Below, piece after piece: positions 24,341 through 61,289 of a DNA stretch of 64,000 nucleotides. Below the pieces are notes generated by a model. It was not told the origin of the DNA and did no database searches. It saw nothing but the letters and a program-made list of their open reading frames with translations. Source of the stretch: a plasmid. The DNA is taken from assembly GCF_053078305.1 (NCBI RefSeq), contig NZ_CP166875.1. One strand, 5' to 3'. A program made the translations under genes and the position numbers. Position 1 is the stretch's first letter; each line of letters begins with the position of its first letter.

Positions 24341-24991
24341 ATGAACAAAACGAAAAGCAGATATCCTTCCTGGTGGGCATATTACCACTTGGCCCGCAAC
24401 GCTTATTTCTTATTAGGAATACCGTGTTTACTTTTATACTCAGCCGCTTATACATCAGATTTATTAGATGATAATCTAAGACATTCAACAAGCCTTTTTA
24501 TTTTGGCATATGGATGTTATTTTCTTCTTTTTATTCCCCCACTCTGGCTATATCTGAGAACTAAGGCAAAGAAAAAGAAAATCCTACAGGTTGTTAAGAA
24601 GATAAAAGAAAGCAGTCCCTTTGCGCCGACCAGCGATTACGAGCAACTGTCATTCTCGAAGAGTTGCTATTTCGGGATCGACATTAAAAACGGCACCATG
24701 CTGTATGTGCGCATTTACCCAAACAATGTCATGGATGTGATTGGTCTGGATATTCACAACTTCACCCGAACAGTTGCTGAAGACGGCAAGCTGGAAATCC
24801 ACACCACCTATGTGAGTCTGCCGATGATCCCTCTTGAAATCTCCGGCATCTCAGCAAGGACGCTGGCCAACACCATGCACACCATGGCTGCACGTGGATA
24901 TGAGTACAAGGAACGTTTCCCACAGATGATCCGGTATCGGGTTAAAGAGTGGGAAAAAGTTGCCGGTGTTCCTGTTGCAGAAGTATTTTGA
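24341..24991 (+). CDS. inner-membrane protein, candidate entry-exclusion protein (ExcA-like by position)
   Basis: GGAGG before ATG; AT-rich; two N-terminal TM helices; immediately follows the traY-like gene. Confidence 0.4.
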   Translation: MNKTKSRYPSWWAYYHLARNAYFLLGIPCLLLYSAAYTSDLLDDNLRHSTSLFILAYGCYFLLFIPPLWLYLRTKAKKKKILQVVKKIKESSPFAPTSDYEQLSFSKSCYFGIDIKNGTMLYVRIYPNNVMDVIGLDIHNFTRTVAEDGKLEIHTTYVSLPMIPLEISGISARTLANTMHTMAARGYEYKERFPQMIRYRVKEWEKVAGVPVAEVF

Positions 24992-25264: not shown

Positions 25265-26848
25265 ATGTCTACCCGCAGCAATTTTCCAGCACGACATGGT
25301 ACTCCATGGAATACTGAAGAGTTACAGCGTCTTCTCGTATCCATAGCGGAGGGCGTCTCGCTAAAAAAACTTACTCAAACACATCAACGATCGTCCGGGG
25401 GAATACGTGGAGCAATCAAACGCCTGCTTCCTTCTGAGTTTCTTGAGTTCAACGATATAAACACGGTGAATGATCTCAGCAATTACTTCAACAAGATTCC
25501 TCGCCAAGAACACAATAGTATCATCAATAATTTAATATCATTGAGCACTGCAAAAACAATTGCTCATGATAAAGTTGAAATACAAAAGAATAGTTTTAAA
25601 CAAAATACCCCACTCCCCCTCTGCCAACCCAATACAGATTTTAAAGATTATATAGCCGATGAACATGATGTCATTATGCTAATTCATTCTGCTATCGAAA
25701 GTTTATCTAATAAACGACATCAATATATTCTTCTAATGCGACTCGGCACAGATGATTCACCTCATTCTCTGGCAGATATTGCCGTCAAATTAGGAATTTC
25801 CCGTGAAAGGGTAAGACAACTTCAGGAACGAGCCCTTGGCTTACTAGCTGCTAAATCTCGCTATGAAGGGACACCTGGAGCTTGCCTTAAAGCCCTTATT
25901 AACTCAATAGGTAATTCACCATATGATATAGCAGTATGGATTTATCGTATTGTTCATCGGGATTTCGTTACATCCTCTGACTTAGCCGCCAAATTCATTA
26001 TTTTTACCGCAGGCATTCCTAAAGCAAGACGAGATGAAATAAAAAGTTCGCTCTCATTAATATCACAATTACAAAAGCAGAGGTTACGTGAACGAAGAGC
26101 AGAATTAGCACACGCTCGCGCTCAGGAAAGAGCCCGAATCAAGAAAGAAAGAGTTGAGTTCATATTCAGTAAATGGCTAGACAATACACATTGGCCAAAA
26201 TATATCGCACCTCCTCCCCCCGTAGAACAGCTATGTTCACAGAGAGCGGTTAATGATACTGACATATCTGGATTCTTTTACTCTCAAAAATTAGGTCGTA
26301 CAGTCCAGTACGAATCAGGGCTTGAGTTTAAAATAATGAATCTATTAGAATGTTGCGATCAGGTTCTTTTCTATCAAGAACAACCATTTTCTATTCCATA
26401 TTGTTTTAAAAACAAATCAAAAAAATACTATCCAGATTTACTCATTGCGACAGTTGATGGTCGGTGCCTACTTATGGAAGTGAAGCCAACAGACCGAATG
26501 ACCTTGAGTCTCACGAGAATAAAAAGTAATGCAGGTCGCAAATGGGCACATACTCGAGGATGGGGATGGTTGGTCATTAGTGATAGGTTCTCGTTACGTC
26601 AGCTGGAAGAACATGCCATCTCAACAAACACATGGAAACTTATAGAGGCTGAACTGAAAACATCAAGGATTTTAGCATGGCGTGAAATGATGGAGTTACG
26701 TACACGATACGAGATTCATCGTTTAGATCTTATTGCATATATCATTCAGTCTGGTGCTGAAGTGGATAACTTTTATCGAATTACCCCGAAAATATCTAAT
26801 AATACATCTAACCAGAGACAACTAAATGAGAGCGACTGTCATAATTGA
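25265..26848 (+). CDS. fusion protein: sigma-70 region-4-like HTH and C-terminal TnsA-like PD-(D/E)xK endonuclease domain
   Basis: Strongly AT-rich 527-aa ORF; HTH segment SLADIAVKLGISRERVRQLQERALGLL; C-terminal YESGLEF...YYPDLLIATVDGRCLLMEVK resembles the TnsA/restriction-endonuclease fold. Confidence 0.5.
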   Translation: MSTRSNFPARHGTPWNTEELQRLLVSIAEGVSLKKLTQTHQRSSGGIRGAIKRLLPSEFLEFNDINTVNDLSNYFNKIPRQEHNSIINNLISLSTAKTIAHDKVEIQKNSFKQNTPLPLCQPNTDFKDYIADEHDVIMLIHSAIESLSNKRHQYILLMRLGTDDSPHSLADIAVKLGISRERVRQLQERALGLLAAKSRYEGTPGACLKALINSIGNSPYDIAVWIYRIVHRDFVTSSDLAAKFIIFTAGIPKARRDEIKSSLSLISQLQKQRLRERRAELAHARAQERARIKKERVEFIFSKWLDNTHWPKYIAPPPPVEQLCSQRAVNDTDISGFFYSQKLGRTVQYESGLEFKIMNLLECCDQVLFYQEQPFSIPYCFKNKSKKYYPDLLIATVDGRCLLMEVKPTDRMTLSLTRIKSNAGRKWAHTRGWGWLVISDRFSLRQLEEHAISTNTWKLIEAELKTSRILAWREMMELRTRYEIHRLDLIAYIIQSGAEVDNFYRITPKISNNTSNQRQLNESDCHN

Positions 26849-27467
26849 TGACGCACAGGACGGAAAAAATAATAGCTGCCGGACAGCAGCAACCAGCAGT
26901 CGTCCGGTAAAAAAGACAAACAAGGCGCATTGAGGTCAGCCTTCGCAACAATCCGGCGGCAGATTCTCTACCGCCGTGTTGCCCGTTAACGTTTAACTTC
27001 GTAGGCTAACGTTGCCACAAGCACCGTATTTCCCTGCTCGATACGAAATCCGCAAAGCGAATCCCTCACCATCCAGACAAAACACAGTATCGTCACACAG
27101 ACGACGATTAACATCATTAAAAACGTTCGTTGTGGCATCGCAGCCCCTCCATTGCCTTTCGGCCGTCATCGGGCTACTATAATGTTGTTGAGGCATTACA
27201 GTGGGCCCTGGGTTGATTGATAAAAAAATCGCCTGGGGCTTTCTGCTACATGCCGTCCACAAAACGCTTTCGGCATACAGCCTCAAGCGCCCGCCGCTAT
27301 TCTAATCGTTTTCCAGTCCGCCACAATCCTTTTCATGCCACCACGTATTTTGTGTCAGGGACAGAAATAAAGCCGGAAAGTGACTACGTGTGCACACATC
27401 TGTTTTCCGGGCTGCAGGCATCGTGTTATTTTCTGAAATGCAAAATAATAAAAAACAAGGACACATC

Positions 27468-28597: not shown

Positions 28598-28845
28598 CGG
28601 ATATTACTGACAGACATACACTTCGCCGTATGTCCTGGTCGGAACTCATCACGGCAGGACAGGAAGCAGAATTTCAGCATGATTACGAGCGTGCCAGAAT
28701 AGTGTGGTCATTCGCCTTACATGTTGCAACAACCACGATTAACAAAAATCTGGCCATAGCTCATATTCGACGCTGCGATACTTTGTTGCATAAATCAAAG
28801 GCTGTACCCGGAAACAACCCGTGTGGTTCCGGTCAGCGAGTCTGA
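28594..28845 (+). CDS. hypothetical small helical protein
   Basis: 83-aa ORF overlapping the previous stop; predicted helical. Confidence 0.3.
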   Translation: MTDITDRHTLRRMSWSELITAGQEAEFQHDYERARIVWSFALHVATTTINKNLAIAHIRRCDTLLHKSKAVPGNNPCGSGQRV

Positions 28846-29475
28846 GACCTCAACATCCCGGGTGATGATTGTCATTCCGGACTGACGCAGCCGCTGCACA
28901 TCTGCGGCAATACGTTGAATACCAAGCCAGAACAGACCATCCAGCGCGGTGACAATTAACCCGCTTTCCAGCGCCAGTTTCAGCCGTGCTGTCGGGGCTT
29001 TAACCTGCCCGGCTATATCAGTGAAACAACGCGTCGTCATGCCATAGCTGTCCGCCCGCCGTATTCGCGTCGCAAGACTGTAACTGAAGCTATCCGGCAC
29101 GCCGGATAAGTCATTCTGCAGACTGTATACACATCCCCGCTGCCGCTCATTGAATACAACTTTTTTCTGGCTGAGCTGCCATTCCCGCCGCACGCTGTCA
29201 ATCATCTGCGGTGTCCGGGTTAACAGCAGACGAAACGGCAGTTCAAAACTGGTCACATAATCAACATTAAGTAAGGCAATCCGCAGCCGCTCCCTGGCTC
29301 CTGCTCCGGTATCACGGCATTCACGCATGACATCTTCCCACTGGCGCATCAGTCGCGGTGACTCATTCCTGGCCCTGAACTGATATTTCTCAATCTGATA
29401 ATCAATATGTTCCTGCATACCGTCACCGGATATCTGTTGCCGTATCATCACGGATATCAGCGTACTGGAATTCAT
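28795..29475 (-). CDS. hypothetical protein with putative C-terminal DNA-binding region
   Basis: 226-aa minus-strand ORF convergent with the small-ORF cluster; C-terminus LDGLFWLGIQRIAADVQRLRQSGMTIITRD looks HTH-like. Confidence 0.35.
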   Translation of the reverse strand: MNSSTLISVMIRQQISGDGMQEHIDYQIEKYQFRARNESPRLMRQWEDVMRECRDTGAGARERLRIALLNVDYVTSFELPFRLLLTRTPQMIDSVRREWQLSQKKVVFNERQRGCVYSLQNDLSGVPDSFSYSLATRIRRADSYGMTTRCFTDIAGQVKAPTARLKLALESGLIVTALDGLFWLGIQRIAADVQRLRQSGMTIITRDVEVSDSLTGTTRVVSGYSL

Positions 29476-29577
29476 GCCCTGCGTGAAGTATCACACTGCC
29501 AAAAAAAACACACCTGAACGTTATTATTTCGCAATATTAATTGCACCTGTTTTCATAAATAAAAAGGAGACGATGAA

Positions 29578-30045
29578 ATGATAAAATATATCTTTTCACT
29601 CACCATTATTTTTTCCGCTTCTCTCTGTGCTGCACAGATTCAGGGGCACGTCATCCGCGTTCTTGATGGTGATACGCTGGAAATATTACAGGACAAAAAG
29701 CCTGTCAGGGTCCGTCTGGCTAATATTGATGCACCGGAAAAGAAACAGCCCTTTGGACGCTGGTCAGCCACTCAGCTGAAGGACCTGGTGGCCGGAAAGC
29801 CCGTAACCGTGCAATACGCGCAGACAGACAGGTATGGCCGTATTCTCGGCCGGGTCTATACCGCTGACGGCACAGAAGCAAATCGCTGGCAGGTCCGTAA
29901 CGGCGCTGCCTGGGTGTACCCGGACTACAATAATGACTATACTCTCCCGCCGCTCCAGCGTGATGCCCGCGCCCTGAAGCGGGGATTATGGGCAGATAAA
30001 AATCCGGTACCACCATGGACCTGGAGAAAACAGAATAAGAAATAA
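29578..30045 (+). CDS. nuc: secreted thermonuclease (staphylococcal nuclease/SNase family)
   Basis: SD AAGGAGA; signal peptide; SNase motifs VIRVLDGDT, RVRLANIDAPE, DRYGRILGRVY. Confidence 0.75.
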   Translation: MIKYIFSLTIIFSASLCAAQIQGHVIRVLDGDTLEILQDKKPVRVRLANIDAPEKKQPFGRWSATQLKDLVAGKPVTVQYAQTDRYGRILGRVYTADGTEANRWQVRNGAAWVYPDYNNDYTLPPLQRDARALKRGLWADKNPVPPWTWRKQNKK

Positions 30046-30385
30046 TTATTTGCTGATATGAAGAAAAAAACCATTTCAAAGAAAATAAATGGCAAAAATA
30101 CAGCATGGAAAAAAATTGCCATTTTTACCGCCGCGTTATTTTTAATATTTGCTGTCTGCTGGTCGTAATAAGCAGAATAACAGAAAGGTGTAAAAATGAA
30201 CCTGGTTGATGCATTTGTCACTAAAGTGATATCCGGACCGTATGAAGAATACGGAAAATGGTGGGTGGATGTAGAATATATTTCCTGGGGAGTTCCGGGT
30301 AAAAGCCGGCTCATGTTTGACTCACGGGAACAGGCACAGGAAGTGCAGGAAGGTTTTCGATTTTTAACCTGAGCATATTTTGTTA

Positions 30386-30415
30386 AAGGGCAGAAGGCGG
30401 TGACCCTCTGCCCTT
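30386..30415. terminator. hairpin after toxin copy 1 (bidirectional)
   Basis: Perfect 9-bp inverted repeat AAGGGCAGA ... TCTGCCCTT. Confidence 0.4.
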
Positions 30416-30434
30416 AAGTACGTTTCCGGGATTA

Positions 30435-30530
30435 TCAGTCAACCAGTTCCCGGATCAGTTCCAGGAGAGCTATCACTGCGTTAGCCACAGCAACAACCGC
30501 CCTGAGAACGATGATTAACAGGTTAATCAT
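30435..30530 (-). CDS. DinQ/TisB-like small hydrophobic toxin peptide, copy 1 (31 aa)
   Basis: Encodes MINLLIIVLRAVVAVANAVIALLELIRELVD; GGAG 8 nt before ATG; the IALLELIR core matches DinQ as I recall it. Confidence 0.4.
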   Translation of the reverse strand: MINLLIIVLRAVVAVANAVIALLELIRELVD

Positions 30531-30845
30531 CCGCTTCTCCATCAATGGAGAAAGAACACCGTGGTTTGCCCTTACATTGCCTGTCGCCACGTTTTCTATA
30601 GTGTCAGTTATAGACAGTTCTTCTCCGGCCAGAGCACCAAAACCAGCACCACCTGATGTTTTGGCCAGGACTTGCAACCTGTTCATCCCGGTGAACGATA
30701 TGCCGGAAAGAACGTGCCTCAAAGCTGACACACCGAGTATATACTTATACTGTGCTTGCAGAAATATTATTTCAGCCGTATTATTTCATAGTCAGTTATA
30801 GGCAGTTATCTTCCGGTCAGGGCTACCAACTTCGATCCGGAATCG

Positions 30846-30876
30846 CAAAAAAACCGGCCTCACCAGTCGGTTTTTT
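30846..30876 (+). terminator. A-tract / hairpin / T-tract terminator, possible 3' end of an antisense sRNA
   Basis: AAAAAAACCG-loop-CGGTTTTTTT; sits at the far end of the toxin leader. Confidence 0.4.
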
Positions 30877-31077
30877 TGCGTCTGTACCTCCTCCCCGGAC
30901 AGCAGTTCTCTCACTCCCGTTGAATATTTCCTGTTGAATTTTACGAAAATACGGCAAATGGGAGATATCGAATATATTTCCTTGGGTGTAGTCGGTAAAA
31001 ACCAGCTCATGTTTGACTCACAGAAACAGGCTCTGGAAGTACAGAAAGTAATCTGTCCGTAGATTATTAAAGGGCAG

Positions 31078-31107
31078 AGGGCGGTGACCCTCTGCCCTTA
31101 AGTACGT
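31078..31107. terminator. hairpin after toxin copy 2
   Basis: Same 9-bp inverted repeat as at 30386. Confidence 0.4.
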
Positions 31108-31118
31108 TTCCGGGATTA

Positions 31119-31214
31119 TCAGTCAACCAGTTCCCGGATCAGTTCCAGGAGAGCTATCACTGCGTTAGCCACAGCAACAACCGCCCTGAGAACGATGATT
31201 AACAGGTTAATCAT
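31119..31214 (-). CDS. DinQ/TisB-like small hydrophobic toxin peptide, copy 2
   Basis: Identical 31-aa peptide and GGAG site to copy 1. Confidence 0.4.
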   Translation of the reverse strand: MINLLIIVLRAVVAVANAVIALLELIRELVD

Positions 31215-31575
31215 CCGTTTCTCCATCAATGGAGGAAATCACTGTTGTTTACTCTTACATTGCCTGTCACAACAGCTCTTTCATTGTTAGCTGAAAAGAG
31301 ACTTCCTCCGGCCAGAGCACCAGACGCAGCACCACCTGTTTGTCCGGCCAGGTCTTTGAATAGCACAGATCCATAGTCCCGATGGATTGATGCGAAGGTA
31401 AGTCTCCAGACAAGGCTAACTTGCTGATTATACTTGTTTCAGGCGATATCGCTACTCCCGGAACAATAGACTGTAACGAACAGATTGCGATCAGGTGAAT
31501 ATAACGATATTCTGGTAACGTTAGTTGAAAAGAGACTTCCCCCGGGCCAGAGCCACCCACTCTCCCTGGGATCGC

Positions 31576-31606
31576 AAAAAAGCCGGCCTCACCAGTCGGC
31601 TTTTTT
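31576..31606 (+). terminator. A-tract / hairpin / T-tract terminator (second copy)
   Basis: AAAAAAGCCG-loop-CGGCTTTTTT; same loop sequence as at 30846. Confidence 0.4.
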
Positions 31607-31750
31607 GTGCCTGTCTCTCACCACCTTCTGCTGTTCCTGTGAAAATGCCCTGCTGAATTCAGCCCTGCCCGGTCATTACCGGCGATTGTTCGCATTAATT
31701 CCACTCAGCCTCATCCCGAAATTTATCTATTTATCGATGGAGGAATCCTC

Positions 31751-33067
31751 GTGTCTTACCAACACTCCCCCACAACAGAAGACCCGATGAACATATGGTA
31801 TATCGTTGGCACCATATGTCTGCTCTTTGCGCTTCTCATCTGGCTCTTTTTACCCGACATCGTCTTTGCCACCTGCCTGATCCTGCACACAATGTGGGGG
31901 ATGACTGACTGGGGGCCTTTTCACCATTTTGCCGCCCCCCGTTACAACCTGCTGGCCATCACTGCTAACAACGCGGCAACCATCACTTTCGGCCAGTGGC
32001 TGGATGTTATGTCCCGGACAGTGGGGATCCTCTGGTTGATTCTGCTTCCCATGACATTCGGCTTTCTGTGGATGTGGTTTCACCATCCGGCCCAGCCCCG
32101 TTTTACCCGCAGGCCACTGAATATCCACACACTGCCCCATATTTTTTCAGCTCTGTCACCGGCGATCGCCCCCGTTCTGGCTGATGGAGACAACAACAGA
32201 CTCTTCCACGGACAAAAACGTCCCGAGCGCCGTGTCGCACTAACCCCCGAAGTCTTTGTGGAGCAGAACAACCTTATCCGCAACATGCAGCTCGATGTTG
32301 CGTCCACACGCCAGTGCTTCATGGCGCAACTGGGGCAACCACTGACCAGCTGGAAAGACATGGCCCCACATGAAAAAGCGCTCTTTGCCATCTTTGGCCT
32401 GCAGTTCTTCCTCGGTGACCGGAAAGCAGCGGTAGCCCTGATGAACAACCTCAATCTCTCCTGCAGGCTCAAAAGTAAACGGGACCAGGGGCGTTTCAGC
32501 ACGCCGGTGTATTCACTGGCCAGAAACGCCTTTATCCGGGTCATCAAAACAGAAGGCGCACAACAGTGGCTCAGGCAGCACCGTTACGTTCGCAGCGGTC
32601 TGGTCTGGCTTTACGCACATGATTTGCGCCTGACGCCTCCGAACTGGCTGTGGCTCAAGGGCGTTGACCGGACGCTCTTCTATGCCCTTCACCGGGCAAA
32701 CACCACAAAAGGCTTCATCGAAGGGGCCGGCGTGGTGGCCGTTGCCCGGGCAGAAAATGAAGCCAGCCGTCTCGGCCTCCCCTGCCCGGAACCCTGTGTG
32801 GAAGAGGCCATTGAAGGGCTTCGACGGGACATGCTGGGGCTGGGCCTGATATGGGACGAACCTCAGCCAGATCGCGATCGTAAACGTCAGATCAGGACCC
32901 GCTGGTCACTCACGGATGACGTGATACCCCGCCGCCATGATAACGACGAAGACACTGACACTGGTGAAACCACCGAAACCACCGAAACCACCGAAACCAC
33001 CGAAACCACCGAAACCACCGAAACCACCGAAAAACAGCATCCCGCCGACAAGGAAAAAGAACAATGA
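31751..33067 (+). CDS. T4SS inner-membrane protein, DotM/IcmP-like (TrbA-like)
   Basis: GTG start after GGAGG; N-terminal TM helices; C-terminal ETT tandem repeat; precedes the trbB/trbC-like genes. Confidence 0.5.
   Translation: MSYQHSPTTEDPMNIWYIVGTICLLFALLIWLFLPDIVFATCLILHTMWGMTDWGPFHHFAAPRYNLLAITANNAATITFGQWLDVMSRTVGILWLILLPMTFGFLWMWFHHPAQPRFTRRPLNIHTLPHIFSALSPAIAPVLADGDNNRLFHGQKRPERRVALTPEVFVEQNNLIRNMQLDVASTRQCFMAQLGQPLTSWKDMAPHEKALFAIFGLQFFLGDRKAAVALMNNLNLSCRLKSKRDQGRFSTPVYSLARNAFIRVIKTEGAQQWLRQHRYVRSGLVWLYAHDLRLTPPNWLWLKGVDRTLFYALHRANTTKGFIEGAGVVAVARAENEASRLGLPCPEPCVEEAIEGLRRDMLGLGLIWDEPQPDRDRKRQIRTRWSLTDDVIPRRHDNDEDTDTGETTETTETTETTETTETTETTEKQHPADKEKEQ
32966..33028 (+). repeat. in-frame tandem 9-bp repeat (gaaaccacc, 6-7 copies)
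   Basis: Perfect tandem units encoding (ETT)n at the TrbA-like C-terminus. Confidence 0.85.
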
Positions 33068-60856: not shown

Positions 60857-61015
60857 CTACTTACCGGATTCGTAAGCCATGAAAGCCGCCACCTCCCTGT
60901 ATCCGTCTCTGTAACGAATCTCGCACAGCGATTTTCGTGTCAGATAAGTAAATATCAACAGTGTGAGACACACAATCAACACACACCAGACAAGAGAGCT
61001 GCGTGGTAGTTTCAT
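60857..61015 (-). CDS. hok: Hok/Gef-family type I toxin
   Basis: Encodes [52 protein letters not shown]. Confidence 0.8.
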
Positions 61016-61072
61016 GGCCTTCTTCTCCTTGCGCAAAGCGCGGTAAGAGGCTATCCTGATGTTGTCAGACAT
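60857..61072 (-). CDS. mok-like overlapping leader frame
   Basis: In-frame upstream extension ([19 protein letters not shown]-) of hok, as in hok/mok/sok loci. Confidence 0.4.
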
Positions 61073-61289
61073 ATGGGATGCCTCGTGGGTTAATGAAAAA
61101 TTAACTACGGGGCTATCTTCTTTCTGCCACACAACACGGTAACAAACCACCTTCACGTCATGAGGCAGAAAGCCTCAAGCGCCGGGCACATCATAGCCCA
61201 TATACCTGCACGCTGACCACACTCACTTTTCCTGAAAATAACCCGCTCATTCAGGCTGTTTACGGGTAATCTGTGTGATTGTTGCCGCA

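Follow-up and report, generated by a model that had tools for sequence, protein, structure and literature searches.

A 36-codon open reading frame (ORF) at positions 30058-30168 of a 64,000-nucleotide stretch of plasmid DNA (contig NZ_CP166875.1 of assembly GCF_053078305.1; the whole analysed stretch is here called the window) is likely a genuine coding gene for a membrane peptide. It lies directly downstream of nuc, a gene for a staphylococcal-nuclease-family protein, and the two are likely independent genes that are chance neighbours in the accessory islet between excA and trbA of an IncI-complex (IncB/O/K/Z-type) plasmid. The features central to this interpretation are:

29578-30045, plus strand: nuc, 155-aa staphylococcal-nuclease-family (thermonuclease) protein (Pfam PF00565, staphylococcal nuclease (SNase) entries of the PDB, RefSeq)
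30058-30168, plus strand: conserved 36-aa small ORF, with a basic N-terminus and one predicted transmembrane (TM) helix, I20-W35 (conservation, synonymous and non-synonymous differences, homologues, AlphaFold2)
30109-30115, plus strand: A7 homopolymer within the small ORF, a polymorphic A6/A7/A8 tract (alignment of 11 plasmids)
30196-30372, plus strand: 58-aa ORF, hypothetical protein WP_001054907.1, downstream of the small ORF in IncB/O/K/Z and IncI1 plasmids (PHROG 8110)

Conservation and coding capacity of the small ORF

The small ORF translates as MKKKTISKKINGKNTAWKKIAIFTAALFLIFAVCWS. On its own, a 36-codon ORF is uninformative in this AT-rich DNA, because the surrounding 5 kb contain 73 ORFs of at least 25 aa; it is the conservation of the small ORF that goes beyond chance. 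In the IncI1 plasmid R64, a 36-codon core (MRRNNLRRNPHEKNIIWEKIAIITASAFIIFAVLWH) was found upstream of the 58-aa ORF and the toxin gene dqlB; it aligns with the window ORF at both the ATG and the TAA. The two versions share 56% nucleotide identity, and a Nei-Gojobori comparison in the small-ORF frame gave proportions of synonymous (pS) and non-synonymous (pN) differences of 0.88 and 0.34, respectively (Fisher p 9e-6). For the TM half, pS/pN was 0.81/0.26 in its own frame, and 0.40/0.37, 0.41/0.37, 0.43/0.33, 0.58/0.33 and 0.09/0.38 in the other five. In this hydrophobic half, a lone synonymous change at the third position separates the two versions at seven codons, and a lone non-synonymous change separates them at no codon.

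A synonymous excess at p<0.01 was also obtained in 16 of 20 comparisons between deep lineages. Among six such lineages pN/pS ranged from 0.32 to 0.67, with p values down to 1e-9 and synonymous sites near saturation; the 36-codon comparisons (window, R64 and L026) were ungapped, and the codon alignments of the three lineages of unequal length were protein-guided, which lowered pN somewhat and has to be counted against a coding interpretation.

Relatives of the peptide were located by DNA searches and by a six-frame scan of plasmids with a profile hidden Markov model (HMM). An exhaustive profile HMM search of 1.84 billion representative proteins recovered 7 clusters only, all with cores of 35-40 residues and with the common motif W-E-[KRQ]-[ILV]-A-[IM]-x-[TV]-A-x-x-F. 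The clusters beyond the I-complex variants correspond to four more lineages, represented by MRKRKQKRGEGEKPLVWEKLAMLTAGAFLILAILGE (36 aa), by MMKNLKFHAEPPENNTFWERVAIVTAAAFILFAVFWRT (38 aa), by a 61-aa protein whose first 37 residues follow the same pattern, and by a protein with the motif at its C-terminus. The small ORF has 36 codons in IncB/O/K/Z, IncI1 and L026 and 38 in L022, and L023 and L027 contain a core of 35-40 residues. The position of the stop is identical in IncB/O/K/Z, IncI1 and L026 and differs by no more than two codons in L022 and L027; L023 (P0124) alone runs past it, for about 25 further residues, to 61 aa. Trp17, Ala21, Ala25, Phe28 and Ala32 are invariant, and variants within clades have substitutions in the basic N-terminal half and at the three C-terminal residues, with the core (KIAIFTAALFLIFAV / KIAIITASAFIIFAV) hardly ever altered. 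In the metagenomic homologue L027, about 20 tandem CCAGAGA copies (positions 160-300) stand in frame upstream of the peptide ORF; this repeat type is prone to slipped-strand length changes and echoes the A-tract polymorphism described below.

The small ORF is, or recently was, very probably a protein-coding gene for a single-pass membrane peptide. To judge from its sequence, the peptide is an uncharacterised small-protein family, confined to MPF_I (mating pair formation type I) plasmids, that belongs neither to DinQ/DqlB nor to any other modelled family. No Pfam, NCBIfam, PADLOC or PHROGs family matched it, and it was not detected by the DinQ/DqlB models NF041472 and NF041473, which score true dqlB copies at 63-64 bits. 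The peptide is called 'hypothetical protein' in some GenBank records (e.g. OSL05395.1 and ACF65803.1; UniProt W0M0V6). The small ORF is not annotated in RefSeq, and the RefSeq annotation of the closely related plasmid NZ_CP026770.1 has no gene between the nuclease and the 58-aa ORF. Literature searches returned no work on either this nuclease or the peptide in IncI or IncK plasmids.

A sequence-only reading of the window had proposed a nuclease gene followed by a possible 36-aa membrane peptide. Its coordinates and translations proved exact, and the peptide is probably real in view of its conserved boundaries, frame-specific synonymous excess and distant homologues. Both genes are present in the order given; their adjacency, on the other hand, is incidental, as the peptide occurs without nuc in IncI1 and other lineages. 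The same reading saw no clear ribosome-binding site for the small ORF, which agrees with the calculations given next.

Translation signals, allelic variation and dispensability

Several observations weigh against a translated and important small ORF. The first concerns its expression signals. Pairing with the anti-Shine-Dalgarno sequence before the ATG at 30058 reaches -1.2 kcal/mol at best; the values are -8.7 for nuc and -6.4 for dqlB, and the median over all ATGs of the window is -2.5. A Shine-Dalgarno (SD) sequence is absent from five of the six lineages, and only L023 has one (GAGG, with 10-nt spacing). Promoter scans detected no promoter upstream of the small ORF that is common to its different contexts. 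The peptide sequence was not found in those supplements to the Salmonella SL1344 small-protein census (PMC10117436) that were searched.

The second concerns the poly-A tract. The A7 allele of this window (encoding W-K-K) keeps the small ORF in frame. The A6 allele (L002 and L010) and the A8 allele (pIP72) shift its frame; L011, L013 and L015 carry A8 or other 1-nt indels, those of L013 and L015 being frameshifts of the latter kind. When 60 evenly spaced rows of the 376 nuc-linked plasmid records were inspected, 32 were 100% identical to the A6 query (~53%), about 5% matched the A7 of the window and about 3% matched A8. Carriers of A6 include the epidemic plasmid pCT (NC_014477.1), which was Sanger-sequenced, so long-read errors do not explain this allele. 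Of the ~1,420 IncI1 records, almost all keep the length of the small ORF; in ~64 of them (L019) a 26-nt deletion truncates the helix and places the stop over the start codon of the 58-aa ORF. Three-frame translation of L002 and L010 revealed one further feature of the A6 allele:

30105-30107, plus strand: internal ATG, in frame with the TM segment in the A6 allele (20 aa, MEKIAIFTAALFLIFAVCWS)

No SD sequence precedes this internal ATG.

The third concerns the toxin-antitoxin (TA) locus beside which the peptide is found. DqlB/agrB works in pOXA-48 without the peptide (PMC12365149), and no such peptide was found in any frame at the dqlB loci on IncX3, IncX4, IncX5 or IncL/M plasmids or at that of one Salmonella plasmid of the MPF_I type.

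Taken together, the small ORF is intact in most I-complex plasmids, is off in the dominant IncB/O/K lineage, where A6 is the commonest allele, and is on in this window. Since it is frameshifted at the poly-A tract in about half of the closest relatives, it is dispensable in the IncB/O/K/Z lineage. The variation of the tract may represent decay, relief from a cost, or reversible slippage.

The ATG of the small ORF lies 12 nt past the TAA of nuc, and in L026 the end of the preceding ORF overlaps it. In addition, nuc, the small ORF and the 58-aa ORF share one reading frame, with the nuc TAA in frame with the small-ORF ATG, and in the IncI1 plasmid L018 the stop of an upstream hha gene is likewise in frame with the small ORF. 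This sharing of frame is probably a coincidence. Read-through of the nuc stop, fusing nuc to the peptide, was rejected, since the peptide occurs in IncI1, where nuc is missing, and since the nuc stop codon, TAA, is a strong one.

Genomic context and association with the dqlB/agrB locus

Over 29400-30450 the window is 100% identical to conjugative plasmids of the IncI complex from Shigella and E. coli, such as NZ_CP026770.1 (replicon IncI-gamma/K1, MPF_I), and this region was matched by 493 plasmid records. The window plasmid is an IncI-type resistance plasmid. In NZ_CP026770.1 the RefSeq gene order is traY, excA, hok, several small hypothetical ORFs, a helix-turn-helix (HTH) protein on the minus strand, a 'thermonuclease family protein', the 58-aa hypothetical protein, dqlB on the minus strand, a second dqlB, trbA, trbB and trbC; the trbA product contains a DotM_C domain (Pfam). 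This order places nuc and the small ORF in a variable islet of the I-type transfer region, with the exclusion gene on one side and the trb genes on the other. Downstream of the 58-aa ORF the window contains:

30388-30413, unstranded: GC-rich hairpin GGGCAGA...TCTGCCC, a shared terminator-like element between the convergent 58-aa ORF and dqlB (sequence)
30435-30530, minus strand: dqlB copy 1 (NCBIfam NF041473, 63.7 bits against a cut-off of 35; RefSeq)
30792-30879, plus strand: agrB-like antisense small RNA (sRNA) copy 1 (Rfam RF02891, 47.7 bits against a gathering score of 40)
31119-31214, minus strand: dqlB copy 2 (NCBIfam NF041473, 63 bits; repeat families D1-D3)
31521-31608, plus strand: agrB-like sRNA copy 2 (Rfam RF02891, 38.5 bits, just below the gathering score of 40; E 6e-4)

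What stands upstream of the peptide changes from plasmid to plasmid: a HEAT-repeat gene on the opposite strand in R64-type IncI1, where the window has nuc; hha in other IncI1 plasmids; three unrelated ORFs in L026; and a TacAT module in L023. In the hha context, homology with R64 starts 2 nt ahead of the conserved ATG. The downstream side is more constant. In IncI1 and in the window, the 58-aa ORF comes next after the peptide, then the GC-rich hairpin and then dqlB, which is convergent; L026 and L023 have this hairpin and dqlB directly 3' of the peptide, and the 58-aa ORF is absent from them. In L022 the peptide begins 40 nt past the 3' end of an agrB-like RNA. The peptide thus adjoins the dqlB/agrB locus in five lineages, and the small ORF belongs to a module ordered as small ORF, 58-aa ORF, hairpin, dqlB (minus strand) and agrB (plus strand), not to nuc. 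This link is not obligatory, as L016 and L017 (IncK2/Z) kept the peptide and the 58-aa ORF and lost dqlB.

The dql family was defined by Kristiansen et al. (PMC5066626). In pOXA-48, DqlB/agrB has been shown to function as a type I toxin-antitoxin system and addiction module, and its reported occurrence is 83% among IncB/O/K/Z and 67% among IncI1 plasmids (PMC12365149).

The 58-aa ORF itself is under strong purifying selection between the window and R64 (pS 0.70, pN 0.09), and was found in I-complex plasmids only. AlphaFold2 predicted four strands and a C-terminal helix (pLDDT, the predicted local distance difference test score, of 85), and no informative structural neighbour of the 58-aa protein was found. 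Two sequences considered as divergent homologues of it (P0076 and P0068) were rejected, being indel-ridden metagenome contigs of the same sequence.

The two dqlB and agrB-like sRNA units of the window result from a ~684-bp tandem duplication within 30268-31640. Each unit has a bidirectional terminator (~30852-30868 and ~31583-31595), and the second contains only a degenerate 3' part of the 58-aa ORF (30934-31062) and no small ORF.

Alternative explanations for the conserved block

The neighbourhood of dqlB or agrB in five lineages, together with a predicted small, hydrophobic, single-helix product, suggests that the peptide could be a type I-like membrane toxin or a modulator or immunity factor of DqlB, that is, a component of the dqlB/agrB locus toggled by A6/A7/A8 slippage. 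The islet is dense in TA systems (hok/sok and dqlB/agrB, with TacAT or MqsRA in relatives), and, as is typical of small genes with toxic products, the small ORF has a weak signal for translation and is often inactivated by indels. We consider this unlikely. Neither the Rfam search nor the folds gave an antisense RNA or structured leader: no Rfam match was found over or beside the small ORF except agrB, which is part of the dqlB system, a conserved antisense promoter was not detected at the small ORF, and no inverted repeat links 30058-30168 to the neighbouring DNA, save an 18-nt match of 83% just upstream. With no antisense RNA found, the peptide is without the feature that defines a type I TA system. 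The lack of similarity to DinQ/DqlB or to any NCBIfam, Pfam or PADLOC family also argues against this explanation, as do the retention of the peptide after deletion of dqlB-agrB in L016 and L017, its absence from most dqlB loci, and the self-sufficiency of DqlB/agrB in pOXA-48 (PMC12365149).

A leader or coupling ORF of the mok/hok kind, which would open the start of the 58-aa gene so that the act of translation matters more than the peptide, is rather unlikely too. Only 27 nt separate the small-ORF stop from the 58-aa ATG, and CAUUUUUAC (30120-30128) is perfectly complementary to GUAAAAAUG (30190-30198), which holds that ATG. However, this pairing is AU-rich and out of register in R64, the alifold consensus is weak (-7.8 kcal/mol), and the fold has a z score of -0.6. 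The IncI1 variant with the 26-nt deletion, in which the small-ORF stop overlaps the 58-aa start (CAATGA), and the modest SD of the 58-aa ORF (-3.9 kcal/mol) are consistent with coupling; conservation of the peptide sequence across lineages, above all of the TM core, and its retention in L023 and L026 without the downstream ORF are not. As in mok/hok-type pairs, a short ORF stands just upstream of another, with a possible start-occluding pairing, but the window ORFs do not overlap, the peptide is conserved, and the downstream ORF is absent in other lineages. Taken singly, the roles of leader ORF for the 58-aa gene, of independent toxin and of DqlB modulator are each improbable.

It is quite improbable that the small ORF is untranslated and a by-product of conserved DNA serving as promoter or 5' leader of the 58-aa gene. 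The absence of an SD sequence, the common frameshifted alleles, the hha context, in which the homologous block acts as a 5' module edge 2 nt before the ATG, and an AU-rich helix that can be drawn by pairing the ORF's 3' part with the start region of the 58-aa ORF would all fit an untranslated element. This explanation does not account for a synonymous excess limited to one frame, for the persistence of the peptide motif where synonymous sites are saturated, or for L023 and L026, which keep the peptide without the downstream 58-aa gene. RNA folding was no better than in shuffled sequences (z -0.6 and -1.35), and no promoter-like site was detected inside the small ORF on the plus strand.

A pseudogene remnant, in which the signal or anchor sequence is left over from the N-terminus of a formerly longer gene, as suggested by the positive N-terminus, the hydrophobic stretch ending in A-V-C and the frame shared with the 58-aa ORF, is highly improbable, given that the stop position is conserved across lineages with L023 as the sole extension, that three stop codons separate the two ORFs, that F-A-V-C is no lipobox and Cys34 varies (L, F, S or Y in relatives), and that the conserved TAA comes two codons past Cys34 with no mature domain following.

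Predicted structure, proposed role and comparison with known small proteins

A coding gene for a membrane peptide is the interpretation that we favour. AlphaFold2, run on the family alignment, predicted a single helix at residues 3-35, with a pLDDT of 93 over residues 21-30; the hydrophobic core comprises 16 residues between the conserved Trp17 and Trp35. By the positive-inside rule, the Lys/Arg-rich N-terminal half would stay cytoplasmic and the 16-residue core would span the inner membrane. Translation is probably weak or coupled, because the small ORF is without an SD sequence, and the position of its ATG, so close to the nuc stop, would permit termination-reinitiation. The peptide may act in the membrane as an accessory of the TA-rich islet; our best guess is a low-abundance, membrane-inserted accessory of the addiction and membrane-toxin islet of the plasmid, dispensable for plasmid spread.

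The peptide shares with DinQ/DqlB, Hok and TisB a length of 30-50 residues, a single helix, hydrophobicity, plasmid coding and a lack of annotation by standard pipelines, and with DinQ/DqlB in particular a location in the dqlB/agrB locus. It is also, as modelled, the small hydrophobic membrane peptide expected of type I TA systems in general. It differs from DinQ/DqlB, Hok and TisB in that its charged segment is N-terminal and long (~19 residues).

AcrZ, MgtS and YohP are small single-pass inner-membrane proteins of enterobacteria. Like them, the peptide has fewer than 50 aa, one predicted TM helix and a positive-inside N-terminus, has been missed by annotation, and is best conserved in its TM core. 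Unlike them, it is plasmid-borne, occurs on MPF_I conjugative plasmids only, contains a polymorphic homopolymer and has no named homologue.

The small ORF represents a well-supported conserved small membrane protein that is dropped by standard annotation (the RefSeq Prokaryotic Genome Annotation Pipeline, PGAP). Its host plasmids, IncI1 and IncB/O/K/Z, are among the main carriers of genes for extended-spectrum beta-lactamases (ESBLs) and AmpC in E. coli and Salmonella, and it adjoins a type I TA system that was experimentally validated only in 2025. Should the peptide affect membrane toxicity, plasmid stability or conjugation, it would be a new component of a widespread addiction locus; if not, it would still provide a clean test case for translation without an SD sequence and for homopolymer on/off variation in plasmid small genes.

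The nuclease gene and its divergent HTH neighbour

The nuclease offers nothing surprising. The product of nuc begins MIKYIFSLTIIFSASLCAAQIQGHV and matches the Pfam SNase domain PF00565 over profile positions 1-107 of 107, with 78.5 bits (cut-off 21; E 6.5e-22); it also matches structures of the S. aureus nuclease in the PDB (E 2.6e-12). In the HMMER alignment, residues D32, R46, D51, E54, Y86 and R88 correspond to D21, R35, D40, E43, Y85 and R87 of SNase, and Y117 corresponds to Y115. Thr41 of SNase, a backbone ligand position, is replaced by Ala52. As D21 and D40 bind Ca2+ and R35, E43 and R87 are catalytic, the Ca2+ site and the catalytic residues are intact in nuc. Around this gene the following features were recognised:

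28795-29475, minus strand: 226-aa HTH protein (ECs1377 family), divergent from nuc (NCBIfam NF052300, 299.6 bits against a cut-off of 190; Pfam HTH_39)
29564-29569, plus strand: Shine-Dalgarno sequence of nuc, AAGGAG (sequence; anti-SD duplex of -8.7 kcal/mol)
29578-29634, plus strand: putative Sec-type signal peptide, MIKYIFSLTIIFSASLCAA / QIQ (n-h-c layout and a C-A-A site resembling A-x-A, by inspection)

The N-terminus consists of MIK, 13 hydrophobic residues and C-A-A/Q, and cleavage probably occurs after Ala19; no canonical lipobox could be read in the signal peptide. Two further claims of the sequence-only reading, a nuc-like gene with SNase motifs and an encoded signal peptide, are thus supported, the former by the Pfam score and the residues aligned to the S. 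aureus nuclease, and the latter by the n-h-c layout and the C-A-A site seen on inspection. The product would be a Sec-exported, Ca2+-dependent nuclease with the staphylococcal-nuclease fold.

RefSeq annotates nuc as WP_000598962.1, 'thermonuclease family protein', which occurs in hundreds of IncB/O/K/Z plasmids (a thermonuclease in 493 plasmid records), and more distant 'thermonuclease' genes are present in thousands of IncX3, IncF and other plasmids; nuc is a common cargo gene of enterobacterial plasmids. It scored below the NCBIfam equivalog cut-offs of NucI (NF047694; 45.4 against 250) and EcnA (NF047969; 38.9 against 180), and scores so far under these cut-offs make it a generic SNase family member. 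Every sequence-level defining feature that was tested was found, and nuc appears to be an ordinary, already annotated SNase member.

With the SNase family (PF00565), including Nuc of pCTX-M3/pOXA-48, nuc shares the full-length domain and the conserved Ca2+ ligands and Arg, Glu and Arg residues; with the plasmid homologues of this family it also shares an N-terminal export signal, a plasmid location and a similar size class. ParB of RP4 is another plasmid homologue within the SNase family. Unlike the homologues located in par operons, nuc sits between excA and trbA. Nuc of pOXA-48 has no role in plasmid stability (PMC12365149).

The 226-aa HTH protein is a probable regulator or partner of the nuclease cassette. 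The divergent HTH-nuc pair recurs elsewhere (L004, L005, L025 and L026), suggesting a mobile regulator-nuclease unit. In other plasmids the HTH-nuc cassette adjoins eptA and DUF2569 genes.

Other features of the plasmid region

Between excA (24341-24991) and hok/sok, the window contains a 527-aa ORF (25265-26848) with a TnsA-like endonuclease N-terminal domain and a sigma-70 region-4 HTH. This ORF is missing at that position in NZ_CP026770.1, where the excA-hok gap is ~630 nt. Two sok antitoxin RNAs (Rfam RF01794) were detected, at 27136-27292 (124.7 bits) and 61013-61184 (87.2 bits), indicating two hok/sok (pnd-like) loci in the window, the first of them inside the excA-trbA islet. The C-terminus of TrbA (~32990-33050) contains an acidic repeat resembling (T-E-T-T-E), TETTETTETTETTETTETTE.

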